Source: Sphagnum compactum
Taxonomy: Eukaryota
DNA: 64,000 nucleotides
NCBI GenBank assembly: GCA_965153455.1
Contig: OZ234493.1
Coordinates: forward strand, 22,868,213 to 22,932,212
Direction: 5' to 3'
The notes below the pieces were generated by a model that saw only the letters and a list, made by a program, of their open reading frames with translations, had not been told where the DNA came from and did not search any database. Below, in pieces: positions 25,647 through 58,569 of the stretch; positions within the stretch are counted from its first letter, which is position 1, and every line of letters starts with the position of its first letter. The translations under genes and the position numbers were made by a program.

Positions 25647-27688
25647 GTGTCCATTGCAAGCACAATTTTGCACTGATGATTCTCTGATGCATTCTTTCTC
25701 ACTCTTCTCTCCCCACATCTATCACCATGCTGATTCAACAAACCCTTCTGAGCTTTCTTCAATTTCTGCAGTTTTCGGAATTGTAAACAAGCCATGCTCT
25801 GTGACCCCTACAAGATGGCGGATGATGATGGGAGAGAGAAAAACCAAAGGAAAACTACTACTAAGCAATTGTCAGTGGTCTGTAGGTCACAGAGAAGGAC
25901 TGTCTGCCAGTGCCAGGACAGCCTGCGGAGTCATTGATGCAAGATGCTCAGTTCTTAGAGCGTGCACAACACTGGCGGGCAATGGCAGAAGCTGTTTATG
26001 CACCTGATCCTGCTGCATTTTCTCTGTTGAGTCATCGACCAGAATCAGCAATTGTTGGAGCAGAGTGGACAGCCGATCCAAGCTCCCTTCGACCAGCCTT
26101 TGCTGTATGTGTTGATGCCCCTTATAGTGCTGTCATCCTGGCTGTCCGTGGCACTTCTGAGGTATGGATTCGTCATGTTCCATCACGTGACTTTACTAGA
26201 TCTTTGGAGTGTGTGATGATGCCTTGAGGTATCAAATTCAAACTGGCAAATGAAAGGCACTTGGGTGATTATAAGGATTGCAAATGTTTGAATGGTTAAT
26301 GAGAATTGTAGTCCCGGATGAATTGCTTGTGCAGATAAGTAGCCAAGACTGATTCATATCGATTGCCAATTCTCAGGTGATAGATCTGCTAGTGAATTCA
26401 GGGGCATCAATGGAACCGTTCCTGGAGGGTGTTGCACATGGTGGGTTTGCACACGCTTCTGAACAGTTGTTAGAAGAAGTAGCACCCATCATTGATCGGG
26501 CTTTTGCCGAGCACGGGATGGCACAAACAGAAGTCAAACTCGTGATTGTTGGCCACAGCTTGGGTGCAGCCATTGGCATCATGGCAGGTTTGAAGCTGCG
26601 GGAAAAGTTCCCAAATTTAGAGTGCTGGGCTTTCTCAACTCCAGCTTGCTTGACGTTGGAGTTGGCACAAAAGTGCAGGGACTTTGTAACCAGCTTCATC
26701 TCAAATTATGATATTGTTCCAAGGTTTTCGCTGCACTCAGTGGAGCTACTTCGGAAACAGGTTTGCAGTTTTGATTGGGATCGTGCTGAAAAAATCCTGA
26801 AAGATGATGAGGACTGGAAGAACATCAAATCAGCATCTGAGGCAATGAGAAAATGGCAGGAAACACAGAAGGGGATTGGTGAGACCGTCCAGAGTGCACA
26901 GGATGGCCTCTGTGAACAGGTGACATGTATTCCTGTTCTAGATTCTTGAATGAGTTTAATCTCTTGATGCATGTTCATCTGACCAACTGCAACAGTGTAA
27001 ACTAAGTGGGCAAACCAGGATTGAACTGGACCATCGCAATCTGTTTCAAAGTGTCCCAATCTGTTATTAGACAGTAGAGCAGACCATCCCAATCTGTTTC
27101 AAGGCATTGTTAAGTGTCCAAATGAGAAACTCCTAATGAGAATAAGAAGAGCAAAGCTGGGTTCCCATTGACTGAAAAAGTTTGGGAATTTGTATATTGG
27201 TATATCTGTTGTGTAGCAGAATAGCTAGCCCCTCAACGCAGGGGTTTTGTAATGTGCAGATGGAGAATGTGCATGAGGCATTGGGAAACAGAGGAGCAGA
27301 AGGCAACAAAAAGGACCAATCTCCAGGTGGAGAAAAACATGGGTCCGAAGATGATGGAGAAGATGATGAAATACAAAACAAAGAAGAGAAAGAGGAGCTT
27401 CCACCACTGTATGCACCAGGAAGAATACTAGTACTGGCAGCAAGTCCACCAGGGTGTGGTAAAATGCCAGAGCAGCGGTCAGGTGTGGCAGCAGAACGGA
27501 AATTGGGGACATACCCAACATTTGAGGAGGCAAAGAAAGTTCAGTGGGTCATGCATGAAGCTGACCAACTGGAGGTTGAGGAGATAGTTGTATCACCATG
27601 GTGTATTACTGATCACATGCTTGGTAACCTTAGTGAAGGCATCTACTACTTGCAGCGCCAATGTAGCCCAGCTTTGCCCCCTGGGTAA
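25069..27688 (+). CDS. Lipase class 3 family protein (diacylglycerol lipase-like)
   Basis: Exons 25069-25278, 25886-26161, 26377-26919 and 27260-27688, all phase-0 GT-AG junctions. Motifs LAVRGT, AHGGF, VIVGHSLGAA (nucleophile), NYDIVPR (Asp), LYAPGRI and DHM (His); hydrophobic N-terminus. Confidence 0.9.
25284..25316. repeat. (CT)n microsatellite at the 5' end of lipase intron 1
   Basis: Pure CT run just after the donor; similar runs occur at 25601-25642 and 30233-30259. Confidence 0.9.
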
Positions 27689-45445: not shown

Positions 45446-46990
45446 AATTATGTTTCAATGGGGATTAGCAACATTAGGTTGGTTTCATTACAATGAAATT
45501 TCATTAATGGCACATGGTGTTGTCGTATGAAAGAAACAATAACTTTTGTCTTTTTCACAATTCGTTTCACCCATGTTGTTTTTCACTAATCTTTCAATAA
45601 TAAGCCTAGACAATGAACAACACAATTTTGAAAATAAAGACTTGGAAAACAATGGATTAAAAGGTTAGTCACATTTTTCATGCTCGAAGCATTGTTTATA
45701 TAAATTTATACAATGTTGTTTACTCCAATGGTTTTGATGTACCACACCAATGTATTACATATGTTATGGGCATCTTTTCGTTCCAGTTGTGTCAATGGAA
45801 CCTATGAATACATCGCCACTTGGACAAGCAAACATTAGGTTCAACAACGGACACTATGCAATGTTGTCCCAACCATCATATGACACACCTCCAAACTCCT
45901 TGAAAGACTCAACTACGAATCCAAAAGTGAAAATAACGAAAGAATAAAGAGTTAAGGGTATGCTCCCTAACTCGCAACATTTCAAGAGTAAGAAGGGCGT
46001 GCTGGATCTCTGAAATGAAAATTATGACAAGTGACAAGCGGGTCAATTATCATAAGAACTTGCACAAACCAAACAACAAGTTCGTTTGTGCATAATTAGA
46101 GCATTTTTGGTGCATGGATGAACCACAAGCATACATAGATTCACAATACTTACCACGGCCTAGATTTGAGGAAAACACCACCTTCCCCCTTATATTATTC
46201 TTTGGGACTTGCCATGAAGGCTTCACCCAAATGTCATTTTTCCCATGACTCCCAAGTCGAAAGTCTCAAAATTTTCAAAATTGGGATTTTTGCCACTTTG
46301 GAAGCCCATAACTTGTTTAGACCTCCGATTGAAGTGAGGTTTAAAGTAAAGTTATAGCCTTTGTTGAAAGCTTTCTAATGATGTTTGGCACGCCCCCTAC
46401 ACACACCTAAATTGGGGTGATTTTTTACTTTTAATGGTCGAAATCAAATTGACACATTGACTCCCAACCTTTCTTTCGGCCATAACCAAATGGATTATGC
46501 AAACCCATTTTAGACATCTAAGTTTCAAGAGGTTTTCAATGGTATAAATTTTGAATCCAATGAATTTTGACACCAACTCGTTCTCTAAAGATTTGGAACT
46601 CCATAAGGATTCCAACTCCCAAAATGGGAGTCCACTTGGGAGTGTGTGGGTTCATTCTCTCACACTCTCTTACACTTTGGGAGTGTAAATGTGACTCCCA
46701 AATTGCACTATTGGCCCACACATTTCCATGCCCTTGCCTTGGTCGTGAACCCAAGGTTAAGGTTGTGACATCATAACAAATGATTGCTCCATATTTGTGA
46801 ATTGAATTTCCCATACTCTCGGTCGCCTGTTTGGACATCAAATGCCATGAAGAAGGTTCACGAATTTCATCAATGATATCCAAACAAGCTCAAGTTCATT
46901 CCTTGTGGAACTTGTCACTAGAAATAGAAGTGATGCCATAGATGCCAATGCCATGAAGTTCATCCATATGAATGTTCATCCATGACTTGT
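45446..46990 (-). mobile_element. hAT (DUF659-type) transposase remnant split by a solo LTR
   Basis: KYGAIICY|DGWDNIA.CPLLNLMFACPSGDVFIGSIDTTG...IGVNNIV...NCVVHCLGLLLKD rejoins across the LTR. Boundaries approximate. Confidence 0.75.
45881..46770. mobile_element. Solo LTR (TG...CA) with 5-bp TSD TCATA
   Basis: Begins TGACACACCTCC, ends GGTTGTGACA; TCATA lies on both sides. Same family as 15934-16849. Confidence 0.9.
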
Positions 46991-49114
46991 AATGAAATTA
47001 CACCCAACTTTTAATTTAGTTTTAGTGTACTTTCAATTAACTTTTATTAAATTTCAATTCACTACTAATTATTTTTAAATTAATTCTTAGTTCATTTTTA
47101 GTTAACTCTTACCTCATTTTTAGTTAATTCTTAGTTAACTCTCAATTCACTTTTAGTTGAGTTTTAATTCATTCATAATTCACACATGGGTGATCATGGG
47201 TGCACATGGGTCAACATGGGCCACATGTAGGTTGGAAGTTTTTTGAAAACAATCTTTGAACTAGATGCCGAATGGGTATAAATAGAGGTAGAATTCCCCA
47301 TTACCTTTAATCTATTCAACAATAATTTTGGGTACATTTTCTTGTCACAACATTTTATTTTTTGTTATTGCAATAAATTTTTATTGATACCTTATCTTGC
47401 ACATGTGTTTTTGTTTCTTGATTTGGAACTTAAAATTAAGCCGACCTTTGTTCAAGTCCTTGGGAAATCTTATTGTATTGGTTGTCTTTGTGCCCATGAC
47501 ACCAATGGATGTACAATTAACTCTGCAAATTGAAACACCCCAAAAATGAATATCTTGGAATCCATCCAATTAGTCAATAGACATACATTTAAACATATGC
47601 AAGCTACATATATAATGTAAACAAAAAACTATCAAAAATTTGACAAATTTCAACATTTGTTCAAGTTTGATGCATGATGGTGGACATTTGGAACATTTTT
47701 TTAATGAAACGGTCATTCACAATTTGGGTTCCAAAGAAAGGAATAAAGAGTCCAACATTTTCTTAGGGCTATTTTTTTAAATGACATTTAAATGAAACAA
47801 ATTAAAATGAAAAAATTTGAATATTCCAACATAAGATAATTCATGCGGTGCTAGTGATTTTTTGCATGATTAAGCATCAATATTTTGGTTTTCAAGTAAA
47901 AATGTATAAATCATCAAAATGAACTTCTATGGACAACCAAACATGTTTTTTTGCATGATTATTTCATACACATACAACATGTGCTTAGAGCTAGAAATTT
48001 GAATTTCATGAATACAAACAACTAGGAAATTTGTATAATCTTTTTTGACCCTTGCAACCATTTGGTTCAAAATTTCAAGCCTTTAAAATTTTGATATGAT
48101 TTTTTTTTCATTAAGTTTACCCAATGAACATGTACGTGTTTATGAAAAACATGTTTTTCTTGTACAAAAAGCTCAAAATCAATTTGTATGATTTTATACA
48201 TTCCTTTTTATTATTAAAAATGAATTTTTTAAATGATATATTAATTTAAAGATCTCAAAAAGACATTTACATAATATCCAAACTATTTAAAAATATTTTT
48301 ATTAATCCAATAAGACATCAATTTATCTATTATGATACAAAATCCAATGTAATTGTTATCATTTAAATAAAATATAAATCCAAAGTTGGACTTGAAAGTC
48401 TTTTAAAAGTTAAACATTGTTTTTTGGAACCCTAATTGGGAATGAACCCTGAAAAGTTGCAACAAATGATGGTTTATATTCAAACCTATCATTATATATG
48501 TTGTGGAATTGGTGCACATATTAATGATTGAATTGTTTGACGAAATATTATTTTGATTTGTAAGGTTTCTAAGCATCATTATAATCATAATAAAAAGATT
48601 ACAAAATACTAATTTTAATGAAAATTTGTCCTTGAAATTTTACACATATAAAAAAAGCAACCATAAGGAACAATCTTTGTCATTAAAACTTTCAAATGTT
48701 TTTGAAGTCATGGAGTTCACATCATGTGATTTTAAAATTTTATTCATTTATACATTGTGTTACGATAATGTTGATGATAATGAACTTTTTAGGTTATAAA
48801 ATGTTATTCTTTTAAAAATGTGCTTGGGCTAAATGTATTTTTAATCATTTGACAACAATAACTTAAATTTATAAAATAAATCTAAAAATTAAAAATTATT
48901 TTCAAATAAAGGTTTTAAGAAAAATTTATATAATTATTGGTGGTACGTTACAATATAGAGGCACAAATACAAATAAATTGAATATTCATAATTTTTTATA
49001 AAATATTTTAATTTTGAGACCCAAATCAATTCTATACAATTTGTAAAATAATTCAAAATTATTAAAATATTACATGTTATTCCTCTCAACATTATACATA
49101 ATTCTAATTACGCT

Positions 49115-52100
49115 TTAAAAATGAAGCTTTTGGAGTGGATTCAATTGGCCAAGAGATGTAGGTAATTCTTGCAACCTCGAACACCTTCCCAAATCAAGCT
49201 TTTGGAGTGCATTCAATTGGCCAATGGATGTAGGTAATTATTGTAAATTATAACACCTTGATAAATTAAACTCTTGTAATGCAATCAATTCACCAATAGA
49301 TGTAGGTAATTCTTGCAAACTCGAACAATCATTCAAATGAAGGTTTTGGAGTGCATGTAATTGGCCAATAGATGTAGGTAATTTTTGCAATCTTGAACAC
49401 CCCCCCAAATTAAGCTTTTGGAGTGTACACAATTGTCCAATAGATGTACGTAATTCTTGCAAGCTAGAACACCCCCTCAAATGAAGCTTTTGAAGTGCAT
49501 TCAATTGGCCAATAGATGCAGGCAAGTTTTGCAAACTAGAACAATCGTTCAAATGAAGGTGTTGGAGTGCATTCGATTGGCCAATAGATATAGATAATTC
49601 TTGCAACCTCGAACACCCCCTCAAATGAAGGTTTTGAAGTGCATTCAATTGGCCAATAGATGCAGGCAAGTTTTGCAAGCTAGAACAATTGTTCAAATGA
49701 AGGTGTTGGAGTGCATTCGATTGGCCAATAGATATAGATAATTCTTGCAACCTCGAACACCCCCTCAAATGAAGGTTTTGGAGTTCATTCAATCGGCCAA
49801 TAGATGTGGGCAATTCTTGCAAGCTAGAACAATGGTTCAAATCAAACTTTTTAAGTGCATTCAATTGGCCAATAGATGTGGGCAATTCTTGCAAGCTAGA
49901 ACAATGGTTCAAATCAAGCTTTTGAAGTGCATTCAATTGGCCAATAGATGTGGGCAATTCTTGCAAGTTGGAACAATGGTTCAAATCAAGCTTTTGAAGT
50001 GCATGCAATTAGCCAATAGATGTAGGTAATTCTTGCAAGCTAGAACAATGGTTCAAATCAAGCTTTTGAAGTGCATTCAATTGGCCAATAGATGTGGGCA
50101 ATTCTTGCAAGCTAGAACAATGGTTCAAATCAAGCTTTTGAAGTGCATTCAATTGGCCAATAGATGTAGGTAATTCTTGCAAGCTTCAACATCCCCTCAA
50201 ATCAAGGTTTTGGAGAGCATTCAATTGGCCACTAGATGTAGGTAATTCTTGCAAGCTAAAACACTCGTTCAAATCAAGGTTTTGGAGTGCATTCAATTGA
50301 CCAATAGATGTAGGTAATTCTTGCAAGTTGGAACACCCACACAAATCAAGGTTTTGGAGTGCATTCAATTGGCCAATAGATGTGGGCAATTCTTGCAAGC
50401 TAGAACAATGGTTCAAATCAAGCTTTTGAAGTGCATTCAATTGGCCAATAGATGTAGGTAATTCTTGCAAGTTGGAACACCCCCCCAAATCAAGGTTTTG
50501 GAGTGCATTCAATTGGCCAATAGATGTGGGCAATTCTTGCAAGCTAGAACAATGGTTCAAATCAAGCTTTTGAAGTGCATTCAATTGGCCAATAGATGTA
50601 GGTAATTCTTGCAAGTTGGAACACCCCCCCAAATCAAGGTTTTGGAGTGCATTCAATTGGCCAATAGATGTAGGTAATTTTTGCAACCTTCAACACCCCG
50701 CCAAATCAAGGTTTTGGAGTGCATTCAATTGGCCAATAGATGTAGGTAATTCTTGCAAGCTACAACACCCCCTCAAATCAAGGTTTTGGAATGCATTCAG
50801 TTGGCCAATAGATGTAGGTAATTCTTGCAAGCTAGAACACTCGTTCAAATCAAGGTTTTGGAGTGCATTCAATTGGCCAATAGATGTAGGTAATTCTTGC
50901 AAGTTGGAACACCCGCACAAATGAAGGTTTTGGAGTGCATTCAATTGGCCAATAGATGTAGGTAATTCTTGCAAGCTACAACACTCGTTCAAATCAAGTT
51001 TTTGGAGTGCATGCAATTGGCCAATAGATGTAGGTAATTTTTGCAACCTCCAACACCTCGCCAAATCAAGGTTTTGGAGTGCATTCAATTGGCCAATAGA
51101 TGTAGGTAATTCTTGTAAGCTTGAGCACCATGATAAATTAAGTTCTTGGAGTGCATTCAATTGGCCAATAGATGTAGGTAATTCTTGCAAGCTAGAACAC
51201 TCGTTCAAATCAAGTTTTTGGAGTGCATGCAATTGGCCAATAGATGTAGGTAATTTTTGCAACCTCCAACACCTCGCCAAATCAAGGTTTTGGAGTGCAT
51301 TTAATTGGCCAATAGATGTAGGTAATTCTTGCAAGTTGGAACACCCACACAAATCAAGGTTTTGGAGTGCATTCAATTGGCCAATAGATGTAGGTAATTC
51401 TTGCAAGTTGGAACACCCACACAAATCAAGGTTTTGGAGTGCATTCAATTGGCCAATAGATGTAGGTAATTCTTGCAAGTTGGAACACCCACACAAATCA
51501 AGGTTTTAGAGTGCATTCAATTGGCCAATAGATGTAGGTAATTCTTGCAAGTTGGAACACCCACACAAATCAAGCTTTTGGAGTGCATTCAATTGGCCAA
51601 TAGATGTAGGTAATTCTTGTAAGCTTGAGCACCATGATAAATTAAGTTCTTGGAGTGCATTAAATTGGCCAATAGATGTAGGTAATTCTTGCAAGCTAGA
51701 ACACTCGTTCAAATCAAGTTTTTGGAGTGCATGCAATTGGCCAATAGATGTAGGTAATTTTTGCAACCTCGAACACCTCGCCAAATCAAGGTTTTGGAGT
51801 GCATTCAATTGGCCAATAGATGTAGGTAATTCTTGCAAGTTGGAACACCCACACAAATCAAGGTTTTGGAGAGCATTCAATTGGCCAATAGATGTAGGTA
51901 ATTCTTGCAACCTCCAACACCCCGCCAAATCAAGGTTTTGGAGTGCATTCAATTGGCCAATAGATGTAGGTAATTCTTGCAACCTCCAACACCCCGCCAA
52001 ATCAAGGTTTTGGAGTGCATTCAATTGGCCAATAGATGTAGGTAATTCTTGCAAGCTAGAACACTCGTTCAAATCAAGTTTTTGGAGTGCATGCAATTGG

Positions 52101-55100
52101 CCAATAGATGTAGGTAATTTTTGCAACCTCGAACACCTCGCCAAATCAAGGTTTTGGAGTGCATTCAGTTGGCCAATAGATGTAGGTAATTCTTGCAAGC
52201 TACAACACCCCCTCAAATCAAGGTTTTGGAGAGCATTCAATTGGCCAATAGATGTAGGTAATTCTTGCAACCTCCAACACCCCGCCAAATCAAGGTTTTG
52301 GAGTGCATTCAATTGGCCAATAGATGTAGGTAATTCTTGCAAGCTACAACACCCCCTCAAATCAAGGTTTTGGAGTGCATTCAGTTGGCCAATAGATGTA
52401 GGTAATTCTTGTAAGCTAGAACACTCGTTCAAATCAAGGTTTTGGAGTGCATTCAATTGGCCAATAGATGTAGGTAATTCTTGCAAGCTACAACACCCCC
52501 TCAAATCAAGGTTTTGGAGTGCATTCAGTTGGCCAATAGATGTAGGTAATTCTTGTAAGCTAGAACACTCGTTCAAATCAAGGTTTTGGAGTGCATTCAA
52601 TTGGCCAATAGATGTAGGTAATTCTTGCAAGCTACAACACCCCCTCAAATCAAGGTTTTGGAGTGCATTCAGTTGGCCAATAGATGTAGGTAATTCTTGC
52701 AAGCTAGAACACTCGTTCAAATCAAGGTTTTGGAGTGCATTCAATTGGCCAATAGATGTAGGTAATTCTTGCAAGTTGGAACACCCCCACAAATGAAGGT
52801 TTTGGAGTGCATTCAATTGGCCAATAGATGTAGGTAATTCTTGCAAGCTAGAACACTCGTTCAAATCAAGTTTTTGGAGTGCATGCAATTGGCCAATAGA
52901 TGTAGGTAATTTTTGCAACCTCGAACACCTCGCCAAATCAAGGTTTTGGAGTGCATTTAATTGGCCAATAGATGTAGGTAATTCTTGTAAGCTTGAGCAC
53001 CATGATAAATTAAGTTCTTGGAGTGCATTCAATTGGCCAATAGATGTAGGTAATTCTTGCAAGCTAGAACACTCGTTCAAATCAAGTTTTTGGAGTGCAT
53101 GCAATTGGCCAATAGATGGAGGTAATTTTTGCAACCTCGAACACCCCCTCAAATCAAGGTTTTGGAGTGCATTCAATTGGCCAATAGATGTAGGTAATTC
53201 TTGTAATCTTGAGCACCATGATAAATTAAGTTCTTGGAGTGCATTCAATTGGCCAATCGATGTAGGTAATTCTTGTAAACTTAAACACCATGATAAATCA
53301 AGGTTTTGGAGTGCATTCAATTGGCCAATCGATGTAGGTAATTCTTGTAAACTTGAACACCACGATAAATTAAGCTCTTGAAGTGCATTCAATTGTCCAA
53401 TGGATGTTGGTAATTCTTGTAAGCTTGAACACCCAGATAGATTAAGCTCTAGGAGGCTAATAGGTATAGGTAATTTTTTCATATCAACATTTATTGAGGA
53501 ATTAAGGTTGTTGAAGGAAAATTCAAAGACAGTTCGTAGATGATTACATTTTGTCAAATGGAGTACTTGTAAACGAGAACATTTAAACAAATTACTTGGC
53601 AACTTTTGGATCATGCATTCTTGGAGACATAACAATCGAAGGTCATTCAAATTTCGACTTTGGATGAAATTTTCCACCGTAGTTGGTGAGGCTTTTGTTA
53701 GGTCAAACAACCTAAAGTTGTGAAATTCTTTTGATCCATTTTGGAATAATGAGGGCAAATCCTCACATTTTTTCAAAGATATGCCTTCTAAATTTCCCAT
53801 CACCGGTACCTATCACATTCAACAAAGTACAAATAATTGTCAATATGAATAAACATAAAACTTCATTATGATGCCATGTTTTAAAGATATAAATATTACA
53901 TATTTTTTTAAATTTAAAATTCATGGTTTCATTTGGAATTTTGACAAAAAAATATAATGTAAGATTGAATTAACACATGTTGTTCAAACCTGATTATTTC
54001 GCAAATATATATTTGGTTTCCATATAAATCGATTCATTGTAACTTCCATTGCAATATTTCGACCCATGTCTTGTAATTGTTCATGCATGTACAAGCTTCC
54101 ATCTTTTGCCCATTTAATTAAAGATCTGTCTTTTAAATTTTGTAATCGAATCTTAGAGCTACGCGAATTATCTCCATTCCAATACACTCGACGGAGTGTA
54201 CATTTGTTGAAACCAACCAAAAAACAAGCAATATCCAAAAACATATTTTGATGGTCCTTATCCAAGTGGTCATAAGAAATTCGTAATGTTGTCCAAAGCA
54301 CTTCATTGTCAAAGCCCCCTGTTATACTTTGCCCATTTTTCAATGTGTGCAATGCATCTTCCCATACTTCCAAATTCGAACTATCACACAAATAAGAACC
54401 TAATACTTCAAGGCTTAAAGGGAGCCCCTCACAAGCTTTTATAATGTCCATAGAAATATTTTTGACATCATTTACCACATGACTTGCATGTTTGAATGCG
54501 TGGAACATGAAAAGTTCCCTTGATTGTTCTTCGTCCAAGAATGCCATGTCCATTTTTGCAGACTCCCTTACATGATATTTTACGATTTGCCAATTTCGAC
54601 AATTTACGAATATTTTGCTCTTGCAATTTACATTAGTGGCATCCTTGTCAATAAGAAGTTGAAGCAAGGCTCCAAGGTTCTCCGTCTTACCAACATCATC
54701 CACAACCACCAAAACTTTTTTTGATATCATGCATTGTTTGATTTGATCAAGGTCTTCTTTATTCAGGTCTTCATCCTTGTGTAACACTTTATCACACAAA
54801 TCATGTAGAAGTTGTTTTTTGACATTGTTGATGTCTTTTGATTTCACATCCTCCAAGAAGCTAGATTTGTCATATTGGTTGTGGAACAAATGATACATTT
54901 TTTTATTCAAGGTGGTTTTCCCAATCCCACCCATTCCAATTAATGCAACAATAGATTCTTTTTGGAACAGACAATTTATCGCATTTGCTTTATCTTTCAA
55001 TGCCACCTCATAACATGGCAAAGGTGGCATAGGTCGTGTGTTTTGTTTCTGTTAAAGTTCATAAACAAATAATTTGTTATTTTAGATAATGGATAATATT

Positions 55101-58033
55101 ACCCCAACAAATATGGCATGCAATTACGTTATATGATATAATGTTATTATAAAATTATATGAACATACAATTCCAAGAGGTAAAATCAACGTTATTTACC
55201 TTCATAAAAGTTTTCAAACATTCCAATAGTATGGAATAACTTGGATGGTCCTTTGTCGGTGGCTTGCAAATTATCAAGTGATTAGCGTCTTCAACTTTGT
55301 AATTGTTATTGTTTGATAATCGAGTAGCTGAAGCCATTGGGACTAAAATTCCATGTACATGTGCAAAAATTATTTTAGTTGAACAAAGAAGGAAATTTTT
55401 TAAACTTATTTCACAACTAATGTTTATAATTTCAAAAGTTATTGAACAAACCAACATAAGTTTCTATAACATAAAAAATGTTCAACCATGGAACTTAGTT
55501 GGATAGTCAATATGTTTAGATGAAAATCTTACCCATTTATTGTCAATAGGTAATCCTTCACCAAATGCATAAATGTTGAGGTCTTTGCAAATAGCTTTGT
55601 TAAAATCCACTGAAAGTTGTTCCATTTTTGGGTTGAAAGATTTCATATTTTCCAAAAGACGTAATTCGGTTGTATCCTTGGTGATTTGTTGACATTGCCA
55701 TTTGAAATATTTTGATAGATCTTGGGTACCACCAGCATGTGGTACACTATAAAACACCACACCTTTAAGATTGTTCAAGAAAATTTCACAATATTTTTGT
55801 ACTTCAAAATCGAAATCATTCATTGGCCTTTGATACACATGTTTGTGGGCTTCAACCACTAGGCTTTTGAATACAAGACCTCCGAAACTATAAGCAACAA
55901 TTGCCACCGGTTTGTCCCAAAGCATTCGATAACTACAAAATATTTCAAAATGCACCAAAATCCATTAGTAACATTTTTAATGTTAATGTACATGTGTTCA
56001 AAAAATCACAACATCATATATTGTATTTAATGCAATTTGTTAAAATTTAATAGAACAACGTAAGCCATAAGTCCATAACAAATTTGTTTGTAGGTTTTTT
56101 TCCATTTTTCATTTGTCTTCATTAGTCTACTTGTAAAATGTTCCAACCATGTTTGGGTTAATAACTTATTACCCACGAGCATGTACGCATATACTTCCAT
56201 GTGTTTATGGACAAATCATCTTTTATGTGTTACATTGAAAAATATATTCAAATATTAGAATGTAGGAATTCATAAGGACTATATATAATTTTTGAAATTA
56301 AATCTAACTACAAAGTGGATTCAATTTTTGTAAATTATATATATGTAATTGAACTTAGTTTGATTACCAAAGATGAAACTTTAAAAAACTCCCATCACAA
56401 ATTGCCACTACAACCAAATTGGTTTCCCATGGCTTCATAACGAAAACACATATTTTGTTAATGATTTATCGTCAACATGAGAATTAACATGAAAGCCCCA
56501 TTTCATGTTCTCCTCAATGAATTTGAAAGTTCCACAATGTTCAAGTTTTGGTGTCTACCACAATAATGCCCCACATTGAACAATTTATTCAAAGATGTCA
56601 AACACAAGCAATTATATTTAATTGAAACACATGGCAAGGAGTAAGATGTCCATAAATAAGGAAATAGACACACCTTGAATTTAAAACCAAGCTTTGAACG
56701 AGGTTTTTGCCAATTTCAGTCACATCATTGTGGACACTTTTGACATTAGAATCATATGACAGTGACAAAATTCTAATGTTGTCATTCAAGTCCTCCGGGA
56801 TCCACATTTGTGGCCAACATATGCATTTTTCTGTATCATCAATGGATTGTGTTGTCCATGTTTCCTTCCATTCATCATTAATCCCATAAGCAATCCCATG
56901 GAAAAAAATTATGGTCAAATTCGGATTCTTTGAAGTGCAATGATTTAAATCATGTACTGGATATCTCTGCAAAGGAAAAGAAAAAGAAAATGTCAAAAAG
57001 AATCATCAAATAAGTCTAGAAAATAATTTTATTATACATAAAGTTAAAGAAATGCAAGATTCATCGAGAGTACAATCATGATATTTGATATAGTTCATTG
57101 AAAATGTGAAGTAGAACAAGACAATAATCTATGAATTAAACAATAAACATATTCATCTTGCAACATCATTTAAATTAACTTTTAATTCCACAACAATATT
57201 TACAATTTTTTGGGCTTGTTAGTTTCCTCTCAAAAAGTAAAGAAAGTAAAATTAAAAAAAAAAGATTTGCATGCAAATTAAGTTTCAAAATATAATTCAA
57301 GAATTGAATATCATCACATAATGTTATGATGGCATATATGCCAATAAATTTAAGGACTAATGATAAGAATTGGAATCTTCAAATTTTGGATTTTTTAATT
57401 CAAACTATCTAATTTGGTTGATTTTCATTTCACTATGTTTTCCACAAATTCTGACCACCAAGGGCTCCAATTCCTAAGCAACTAGGACACAATCACAAGA
57501 ATAATGTTCAAGAGAATTCTTTAATAATTATGTTGTTGGATTTAGACCATTTTAGAGTTACTCATAATTTTACATTGAAAGTTGCAAACCTTATATATTG
57601 TATATGTGAACATAGTCAATGCCAAGTGACAAATTTTCCTTTCACCAATTCTACTTGTTATAGCAAAGTGAGTCCCAAATGTAAGAGTTTGTTTTGATAT
57701 CACTTCATTTCATATCGATAGATTTAAATGATGCAATGGAAAGCAAGCAAAATGATTGGTACTCAACAAAGAACCTCATAAACTAATGTCAAATTTCAAC
57801 ATGTATCTTTGGAAAGCCCAAGAAAAAGACTTGTGCAAAACGAGTTCAATCATAAAAGCAAGAGGATTCACCACATTGTTGCCTTGTCTAGAGATTGAAG
57901 GAGCAGTTTCACCAGAGATTGAAGGTGTGTTGATCACACCATGGATTGGCATAACATCCCCTTTTCTTTTTTTTGTTGGCCCTTGTGAAACATCAACACC
58001 TTTTCCCTCACGGTGAGAGAATGAATTTTCCAT
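49115..58033 (-). CDS. alpha/beta-hydrolase-NB-ARC-LRR (HNL-type) immune receptor, possibly pseudogenised; first stop at 51506
   Basis: Hydrolase exons 56966-56674 (IIFFHG, CWPQMWIP, RILSLSYD), 55932-55533 (VAYSFGG, FYSVPHAG) and 55352-55200 (DANHLIICKP). NB-ARC exon 55048-53990 (GMGGIGKTT, VLVVVDDV, GLPL, MFLDIACF, MHE). LRR exon from 53809. First exon near 58033 is tentative. In-frame stops at 51506, 50690, 50186, 50009, 49238 and 49115. Confidence 0.85.
49118..53452 (-). repeat. Tandem array of 60 near-identical 72-bp units encoding 24-aa LRRs
   Basis: The GATGT(A/G)GG anchor recurs at exact 72-bp phase from 53401 to 49153 with no indels. Consensus LQxLxLxxCxxLQELPTSIGQLNA. Confidence 0.97.
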
Positions 58034-58569
58034 ACCTCCCACTAGTCAAATTCCATTCATTAACTCCTCTCCTCTATATATTTCCTCTTCACTTTTTGCT
58101 CTCCAAAAACCTGCTAGAAGTCCTATGCCCTCTCAAAAGCATACACGTTATAAAGTGTCTCCATCACAAAACCCATTCTCACAACCTGATTTTTCCGCTA
58201 GCTCTCTGGAATATTGATTCCTTTCCACTTAATGGCCTCCCTGAAATTCCCCCACGCTTCTCTTACTCCTTTGCTTATCCTCAGGCCTCTTCAAGAACTC
58301 TTCTTCTCACATATCTTTCTTCTTTGTTTTCTCCTCTCCTAGAACTCCCTAGAAGGATTGTGCCATGACTGATGACAGAGTAAGCGTTTTGCCGATTCCA
58401 GGCCCCATCACTAATTTGTCTGGGACACAAGTCTATTTGCTTCTCAGAATTGAGGATACAGTTTGCTATTTAACGTTGATCGGTAAACATGCTTTACTGG
58501 TTCCGTCCAGGCTCCATTACTGTGACAATGCTTGTTTTACGCGTTTCCTGTCTGCTGATTTCACCCAGT

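Follow-up and report, generated by a model that had tools for sequence, protein, structure and literature searches.

The window analysed here, a stretch of 64,000 nucleotides of the peat moss Sphagnum compactum (contig OZ234493.1 of assembly GCA_965153455.1, forward-strand positions 22,868,213 to 22,932,212), carries on its minus strand a gene for a nucleotide-binding leucine-rich repeat receptor (NLR) that bears a hydrolase domain at its N-terminal end and, in its last exon, a tandem array of 60 units of 72 bp, each coding for a single leucine-rich repeat (LRR). From the results presented below, the gene probably belongs to a large Sphagnum-type family of hydrolase-NLRs, presumably immune receptors, and its array probably grew by recent duplications of blocks of units before this copy, still transcribed, was inactivated. 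All positions are those of the window.

Tandem Repeats Finder reported a single array at 49119-53434, with a period of 72, 59.9 copies, 87% matches, 0% indels and a score of 5846. On the minus strand, positions 49136-53455 are read as 60 in-register 72-bp units of 24 residues each, unit n running downwards from 53455-(n-1)*72. The minus-strand frame that enters from 53809 comprises 118 residues followed by the 60 units, and the last exon is divided as follows.

53456 to 53809, minus strand: first part of the last exon, 118 residues ahead of the regular array (translation; low AlphaFold confidence for residues 1-118; splice joint 53807>53988, 92 reads)
51512 to 53455, minus strand: LRR units 1-27, open frame (translation; AlphaFold2 solenoid, confidence score pLDDT about 88 along the units)
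49136 to 51511, minus strand: LRR units 28-60, register kept, interrupted by five stops (unit-by-unit reading)

Each unit has the form of one 24-residue LRR, LxxLxLxxCxxLQELPTSIGQLNA. Codons 1, 2, 4, 6, 9 and 12-24 (LQ.L.L..C..LQELPTSIGQLNA) are near-fixed, with low synonymous variation when counted codon by codon. Most of the variation is found in codons 3, 5, 7, 8, 10 and 11, and codons 14 and 23 vary slightly. The mean pairwise identity of the units is 0.79 for the whole array and 0.82 for units 1-27, and the array comprises 35 distinct unit proteins with 14 different dipeptides at the two residues before the Cys. A previous sequence-only reading had described an array of 60 units of 72 bp, listed the dipeptide of every unit, and claimed that half of the unit is nearly invariant, synonymous sites included, with the variation placed elsewhere. 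The array was recovered at the same length and without indels, the dipeptides were reproduced for all 60 units, and the codon-by-codon count gave the same division of the unit.

Apart from this gene the window contains no second NLR, as judged by tblastn with the homologous protein P0006. This minus-strand gene comprises six exons, and the parts upstream of the last exon are listed here.

57872 to 58033, minus strand: exon 1, start codon at 58033 (tblastn with P0006 residues 1-58; open frame; joint 56966>57872, 32 reads)
56674 to 56966, minus strand: exon 2, N-terminal part of the alpha/beta-hydrolase domain (tblastn; GT..AG introns on either side; joint 55932>56674, 77 reads)
55533 to 55932, minus strand: exon 3, core of the hydrolase domain, including the nucleophile-elbow-like motif AYSFG (weak DUF676 match)
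55353 to 55354, minus strand: last two bases of intron 3, AT and not AG, a damaged acceptor (sequence)
55200 to 55352, minus strand: exon 4 in its canonical extent (RNA joints, translations)
53990 to 55048, minus strand: exon 5, NB-ARC and Roq1-type winged helix (Pfam, motifs)

Over 53984-55051, Pfam returned NB-ARC (E 3.8e-31) and WHD_ROQ1 (E 1.4e-12), and the NB-ARC motifs GMGGIGKT (P-loop), LVVVDD (Walker B), GLPL and MHE (MHD-type) were found. The last exon matched LRR_14 (E 9.9e-113) and the RPS4B-like LRR_13 (E 5.9e-51). In exon 3 the DUF676 match (E 0.0098, 15.9 bits) stays below the Pfam cut-off of 20.3, which is exceeded in the homologues P0001 (21.1 bits), P0017 (25.0) and P0019 (24.7); the window gene shares 85-87% identity with P0001, P0005 and P0006 across their first 285 residues. 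As to a catalytic Ser-Asp-His triad, the elbow-like motif AYSFG was located. Judged by these matches, the product would be an alpha/beta-hydrolase (DUF676-like), NB-ARC and LRR receptor, in agreement with the earlier identification of a hydrolase-NLR. The closest relatives are all Sphagnum proteins (best identity 88%), followed at greater distance by proteins of Ceratodon and by seed-plant NLRs with TIR domains. Metagenome contigs scanned with the NB-ARC protein yielded 80 related loci with 66-89% identity.

A polyA RNA run (X22, with the same species label as the best-matching DNA runs) was mapped on 53312-58400, that is, on the unique 5' part of the gene plus two edge units of the array. Among public runs, the share of words sampled from the unique gene part was 0.50-0.60 in the best DNA runs and about 0.23 in metatranscriptome runs. 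RNA depth was about 100 over the exons and near zero in the introns, and five introns were supported by joints. The first mates fell nearly all on the plus strand, giving a single-strand signal; plus-strand first mates indicate minus-strand RNA in most stranded libraries.

Four of the introns are plain GT..AG introns. Intron 3 ends in AT, at a site where all 40 of the 40 related loci that cover it have AG, and the DNA contigs of runs X1 and X3 show 0 differences from the window across 55323-55502. Two joints were observed over this intron. The first (55342>55533, 190 nt, 28 reads) uses a cryptic GT..AG pair, by which exon 4 loses 10 nt and the frame is shifted; the second (55351>55532, 180 nt, 40 reads) is in frame. 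If the cryptic acceptor is used, the frame is lost after about residue 285 and a stop comes at 308. Use of the canonical acceptor would carry the frame as far as unit 28 (codon 1457), and the stop that follows unit 60 would be codon 2254.

About half to two thirds of the RNA reads differ from the window at many exon sites (e.g. 55661 and 55672), from which it follows that a second, very similar copy is expressed. This copy, a paralogue, homeologue or allele, is more than 95% identical and is expressed alongside the window copy. Since so many reads carry the other letters nearby, we infer that the 40 in-frame joint reads stem from the second copy. They could also be taken to mean that the window gene is functional, with the stop in unit 28 setting the C-terminus of a protein of about 1456 residues and 27 LRRs, 33 units left untranslated, and the AT acceptor used often enough. 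It speaks for a functional gene that exons 1-5 are otherwise intact and that the NB-ARC motifs are retained, but its acceptor is at odds with that of every relative covering the site, GT..AT introns are very rare, the cryptic AG that shifts the frame accounts for 28 reads, and the 40:28 ratio of in-frame to shifted reads fits the ratio of about 2:1 between other-copy and window letters at 55661 and 55672. On balance we regard a functional gene as unlikely.

Tested for open frame and splicing, the locus, with its AT acceptor and five in-frame stops, is not an intact, translatable gene, and we classify it as a transcribed, recently inactivated pseudogene that is still polyadenylated. The sequence-only reading had proposed that this NLR generates specificity. 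The present copy cannot do so now, because of its five nonsense codons and its broken splice acceptor. The five premature stops, of which only the first had been marked before (by a bar, with no mention of premature stops), and the stop at the end of the array are located as follows.

51506 to 51508, minus strand: stop 1, TAA at unit 28 codon 2, CAA in other units (unit alignment)
50690 to 50692, minus strand: stop 2, TGA at unit 39 codon 10, TGG in its unit family (unit alignment)
50186 to 50188, minus strand: stop 3, TGA at unit 46 codon 10, TGT in its unit family (unit alignment)
50009 to 50011, minus strand: stop 4, TAA at unit 48 codon 21, CAA in other units (unit alignment)
49238 to 49240, minus strand: stop 5, TAA at unit 59 codon 14, GAA in most units (unit alignment)
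49115 to 49117, minus strand: stop behind unit 60 (LQKLHF*), likely the original end of the frame (translation)

Each of the five stops is private to one unit, and since they are not shared between units they must be younger than the duplications. Units 1-27 are free of stops, which under random placement of five stops has a P of 0.05 and lends some weight to the functional gene considered above. Stops also seem to be over-represented among the youngest changes, with 5 in about 30-42 private changes against the 5.6% expected from codon make-up; this excess is marginal (P 0.02-0.08).

The history of the array can be read from its higher-order blocks. Those noticed earlier from the dipeptides could be placed at defined units: (NE-RG)x3 corresponds to units 11-16 and contains a 270-nt exact in-register repeat, AR-NE-SW is found at units 24-26 and 31-33, CGx4 at units 27-30, and NHx5 at units 47-51. 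A block described as units 7-12 recurring at 33-38 does recur, but its true extent is units 6-12 versus 32-38, i.e. 7 units or 504 nt with 5 differences (99% identity). Units 23-26 and 30-33 correspond to each other, with 3 differences between them. At the DNA level 43 of the 60 units are distinct, 47% have an identical twin and 72% have a twin within 1 nt. The most divergent units are found at the edges of the array (1-3 and 56-60), and most of those in the interior have an identical or 1-nt twin, which is the usual picture for an array evolving by unequal exchange. The array has grown by very recent internal duplications of blocks of 1-7 units, so that the unit-wise build-up claimed earlier holds in the form of unit- and block-wise duplication. 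No segment longer than 58 nt was shared at 97% identity or more between the window array and any of the 80 related loci, showing that the recent duplications were internal to the window array. Recent exchange with paralogues was considered as well and was rejected for these 80 loci on the same result.

Repeats of this kind are hard to assemble, and the array or parts of it (unit number, unit order or stops) could in principle be an artefact of assembly or consensus in which a repeat was collapsed or expanded. The identical twins of 47% of the units and the exact repeats of up to 270 nt are in line with this, as are an array sequence taken from the assembly and a highest share of unique-part sampled words of 0.60 in any public run. 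On the other side, the register is perfect, with no indel over 4.3 kb, the block pattern is non-periodic, and the same type of array occurs in 69 independent loci. Moreover, misassembly does not produce nonsense substitutions, and two other runs have contigs that confirm the flanking exons as well as the acceptor lesion. We consider an artefact quite improbable.

The related loci place the window gene in a family of similar architecture. A period-72 array follows the NB-ARC in 69 of the 80, the others ending before it or having no array. Among 36 complete arrays that are non-redundant, unit number ranges from 8 to 81, with a median of 38 (one further locus pair, L067 and L068, seems redundant). 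When unit order was compared among paralogues, as had been suggested along with the sequence-only reading, both the number and the order of the units differed among these relatives.

Lesions are common in the family. At least one stop or frame shift was found in 35 of the 36 complete arrays (the natural stop being counted), with the first break in the last tenth of the array in about 10 of them. Two arrays are near-open, with 78 of 79 and 60 of 62 units; the former (L021:4819-10549) would encode an NLR some 2,700 residues long. A further array, L078:8534-14339, has 49 of its 81 units open. The lesions are clustered distally (29 arrays, Fisher combined p 3e-45), the first break comes after a median of about 26 units, and at least 10 units lie beyond it in 18 of the 36 arrays. 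With 27 open units of 60, the window is typical of the family in open-unit number. Both the median position of the first break and the long stretches behind it count in favour of a functional window gene ending in unit 28.

The 1755 stop-free units of the family have entropy peaks at positions 3, 5, 7, 8, 10, 11 and 23 and contain 155 dipeptides. Annotated Sphagnum proteins, taken from the best 120 protein matches, have 0-23 regular units. The C-termini of P0005 and P0006 (…RITYIYW.IECTPKP) are a frame-3 translation of an LRR unit, which implies that their arrays continue behind a frame shift at which the annotation ends. As the annotated proteins have at most 23 units or no LRR, against far longer genomic arrays, inventories of moss NLRs may under-describe the LRR domain. 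Family arrays, reaching about 80 units, exceed any among the matches listed in two protein searches.

Selection was estimated by crude counting methods. Young changes were taken as deviations from the consensus within unit families differing by at most 2 nt. In the six variable codons they comprise 10 non-synonymous, 4 synonymous and 2 stop changes, and in the other 18 codons 3 non-synonymous, 8 synonymous and 1 stop change (Fisher p 0.047 for non-synonymous versus synonymous in variable versus other codons). Scaled by sites, these counts give an omega, the ratio of non-synonymous to synonymous rates, of about 0.55 for the variable codons and 0.12 for the others. For all distinct units, the Nei-Gojobori method gave a ratio of non-synonymous to synonymous differences (pN/pS) of 0.81 in the variable codons (dN/dS, the corresponding ratio of rates, 0.73) versus 0.25 in the framework, with synonymous differences (pS) also higher in the variable codons (0.446 vs 0.177). 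The low framework ratio implies purifying selection on the framework during growth of the array. The variable positions are nearly free of constraint, and positive selection is not shown. The sequence-only reading had looked to dN/dS for positive selection at the variable codons; the ratios obtained (0.55-0.81) are above those of the framework yet below 1.

In the constant half of the unit, pS is 0.18 within the window array, 0.20 within arrays and 0.21 between arrays, and the mean NB-ARC pS between the window gene and 59 related loci is 0.23. The pool of units and the gene family are of about the same age. Low synonymous variation in the constant half calls for no special constraint on its synonymous sites, pS there being about that of the NB-ARC between paralogues, and such a constraint was rejected as unnecessary.

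The open part of the last exon (767 residues) was modelled with AlphaFold2 without an alignment. The mean pLDDT is 79, with about 88 along the units and values below 50 for the first 118 residues. The model forms a regular solenoid, in which unit positions 3-7 (3-5 in later units) are a strand and positions 17-21 a short helix. Within the strand, positions 3, 5 and 7 take turns with the core leucines, and the loop that follows contains 8, 10 and 11. By established LRR geometry, positions 3, 5, 7, 8, 10 and 11 are thus predicted to line the concave face, so that the modelling proposed earlier places the variable residues where they had been expected, on a predicted beta-strand and the loop behind it. 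Foldseek returned generic long LRR solenoids only (ectodomains of plant receptor kinases, SHOC2 and Leptospira LRR proteins).

From the dipeptide before the Cys, the array had been likened to that of a transcription activator-like effector (TALE). In TALEs nearly all variation lies in two residues, and one unit reads one DNA base. What TALE repeats and the window array share is a long tandem succession of near-identical units in which one pair of residues is hypervariable. Unlike in TALEs, positions 7-8 hold only 31% of the pairwise residue differences in the window array (72% for the six variable positions), and the fold is a predicted LRR solenoid. Positions 3, 5, 10, 11, 14 and 23 co-vary with the dipeptide as whole-unit types, and linkage extends across unit borders, K14 being linked to H23, and H23 in turn to K3 of the unit that follows. 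A TALE-like dipeptide code is not supported by this distribution.

In appearance, with few unit types reused in varied orders and a silent tail beside a translated part, the array resembles a programmed or somatic generator of diversity, be it one with a TALE-like code of one unit for one target or one with cassette assembly like that of the lamprey variable lymphocyte receptors. But the dipeptide accounts for too small a part of the differences, the unit types are linked over at least six positions and beyond the borders of single units, germline tandem duplication explains the pattern fully, and the window copy is broken. Furthermore, the sequence next to the gene yielded neither a recombination signal nor a recombinase or cytidine deaminase: in a Pfam search of 10 other long open reading frames (ORFs) of the window, a class-3 lipase was the sole match and 9 had none, with nothing suggesting recombination machinery. 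We hold a generator of this kind to be highly improbable.

Some further features of the window were noted. The lipase ORF (plus strand, 26353-26949; Pfam Lipase_3, E 1.8e-17) lies about 22 kb from the NLR and is a gene of its own. On the plus strand, long antisense ORFs of up to 428 residues (SAFNWPIDVGNSCKLEH…) run through the array at 50574-53381 and are a by-product of the repeat; almost no RNA reads in antisense orientation were seen over 53312-58400. Short AT-rich tandem repeats (periods 10-22) are located at 46953-47817, 1.3-2.2 kb downstream of the array end.

To account for the favoured interpretation, a block-grown array in a copy that was then inactivated, we propose the following course of events. 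Arrays of the family would grow, shrink and be reshuffled by in-register unequal crossing-over, slippage or conversion, the near-constant framework half of the unit being the likely homology substrate, and diversity would be tolerated, perhaps favoured, on the concave-face residues 3, 5, 7, 8, 10 and 11. The window array would first have expanded to 60 units through duplications of 1-7-unit blocks. Inactivation would then have come about in two ways: by a change of the intron-3 acceptor from AG to AT, with splicing shifting to the AG 10 nt downstream and the frame lost after about residue 285, and by five nonsense codons from unit 28 on.

Several observations weigh against this account. Some of the 40 in-frame reads could come from the window copy, and a protein of 27 units could be normal if splicing is intact, because the median first break in related arrays lies at about 26 units. 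For unit number, unit order and the five stops, the assembly is the sole source. At the sequence level, recent exchange between paralogues was not seen in the 80 loci, and an omega above 1 at the variable codons was not found with the counting methods, either over all distinct units or among the young changes. Finally, the window stands out by its frequency of units with a twin within 1 nt (72%, versus at most 36% in 46 other arrays), but this is a biased comparison, since the metagenome contigs are probably derived from short-read data, so that identical units may be collapsed or wrongly joined and arrays of this type would be missed.

Point mutation, integrated domains and exchange among paralogues are the usual explanations for NLR diversity in plants. 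The bryophyte family described here has single-LRR arrays of 8-81 units with a fixed framework, a variable concave face and a fast turnover of units. The window copy, a transcribed pseudogene, is by itself of limited interest, and its array is a real feature that takes a known kind to an extreme. Should the arrays of intact members be functional, repeat shuffling would be a convergent route to recognition diversity in a haploid-dominant, clonal plant, and the arrays would represent natural regular LRR scaffolds of defined length. As a speculation that we rate as doubtful, the peat-moss hydrolase-NLRs may be to plants what the NLRs of high internal conservation are to fungi: germline shuffling of single-LRR cassettes would make new recognition surfaces across the whole moss family, and the untranslated near-identical tails would serve as a reservoir of units, returned by unequal exchange or conversion.

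A protein search with the array as query returned TAO1-like TIR-NLRs of Brassicaceae with 13-25 units (identity 0.67-0.70), a pine NLR with 18 units (0.71), a fern NLR with 27 units (0.77) and a Physcomitrium kinase-NLR with 28 units (0.74). The comparison proteins with regular LRRs (P0133, P0121, P0130, P0137 and P0144) were compared as proteins and have chains of 18-28 units. These NLRs have in common with the window array the motif LxxLxLxxCxxLxxLPxSIGxLxxL, with a constant half and variable xLxLxx positions, but differ from it by TIR or kinase N-termini, fewer units and lower identity (0.67-0.77). The sequence-only reading had contrasted the array with the more degenerate LRRs of angiosperm NLRs. 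The window array is indeed more regular, but the contrast is one of degree only, because TAO1-like, pine, fern and Physcomitrium NLRs carry regular 24-residue arrays. The tomato proteins Cf-2 and Cf-5, worked on by Dixon et al. in 1996 and 1998, reportedly have many near-identical 24-residue LRRs and an LRR copy number that varies between alleles. These plant resistance proteins thus resemble the window array in their near-identical 24-residue LRRs and their allelic copy-number variation, and differ from it in being receptor-like proteins with an extracellular location rather than NLRs, and in the far smaller number of conserved units.

Hydrolase-NLRs are a described class of bryophyte receptors, and Sphagnum is named among their holders in the passages on them in Chia et al. 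2024 (PMC11218826). The window gene agrees with these receptors (Hyd-NLR/HNL) in the domain order of alpha/beta-hydrolase, NB-ARC and LRR given there. The same passages on Hyd-NLRs do not mention the regularity of the LRR array, its size (up to 81 units) or decayed tails. A description of moss LRR arrays was not found in the full-text literature, the search covering main texts and not the supplements of PMC11218826, which may detail Sphagnum Hyd-NLRs. The very long self-similar single-LRR arrays of Sphagnum-type Hyd-NLRs are thus undescribed as far as the literature was searched.

The closest parallel in design comes from fungi. In the sections of Dyrka et al. 2014 (PMC4986451) on HET-E, HET-D and the NWD proteins, the C-terminal repeats are near-identical, variable in number, reshuffled, and variable at few surface positions. 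The criterion used there is an identity of more than 85% among the repeats, over 100 residues or more. In the window array a run of 17 units (units 8-24, 408 residues) is the only stretch at 0.85 or more, the mean of the whole array being 0.79, and repeat-number polymorphism is found between paralogues or relatives (8-81 units in the 36 complete arrays, 3-23 in annotated proteins). The likeness to the fungal NLRs of high internal conservation lies in near-identical C-terminal repeats that vary in number and at few surface positions, as set out in those sections. In the same sections the fungal repeats are WD, ANK or TPR, never LRR, and positive selection is shown for them; the repeats of the window, in contrast, are LRRs, and their pN/pS is below 1.

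Among plants, two further papers describe conserved repeats in the LRR region of NLRs. The BED-domain NLRs Xa1/Xo1 of rice have 4-7 near-identical repeats of 93 residues, with a copy number that varies between alleles (PMC7748017), and the coiled-coil NLR Vat/Pm-w of melon has 1-7 repeats of 65 residues, whose variation is attributed to unequal crossing-over (PMC10807702). Like the window gene, both are plant NLRs with conserved tandem repeats of the LRR region that vary in copy number. Unlike these repeats, which as described hold several LRRs per unit, the unit of the window is a single 24-residue LRR present in 60 copies (8-81 in relatives). The design of the moss arrays thus matches that of the fungal WD, ANK and TPR NLRs and, at a far smaller scale in the latter, that of Xa1 and Vat.

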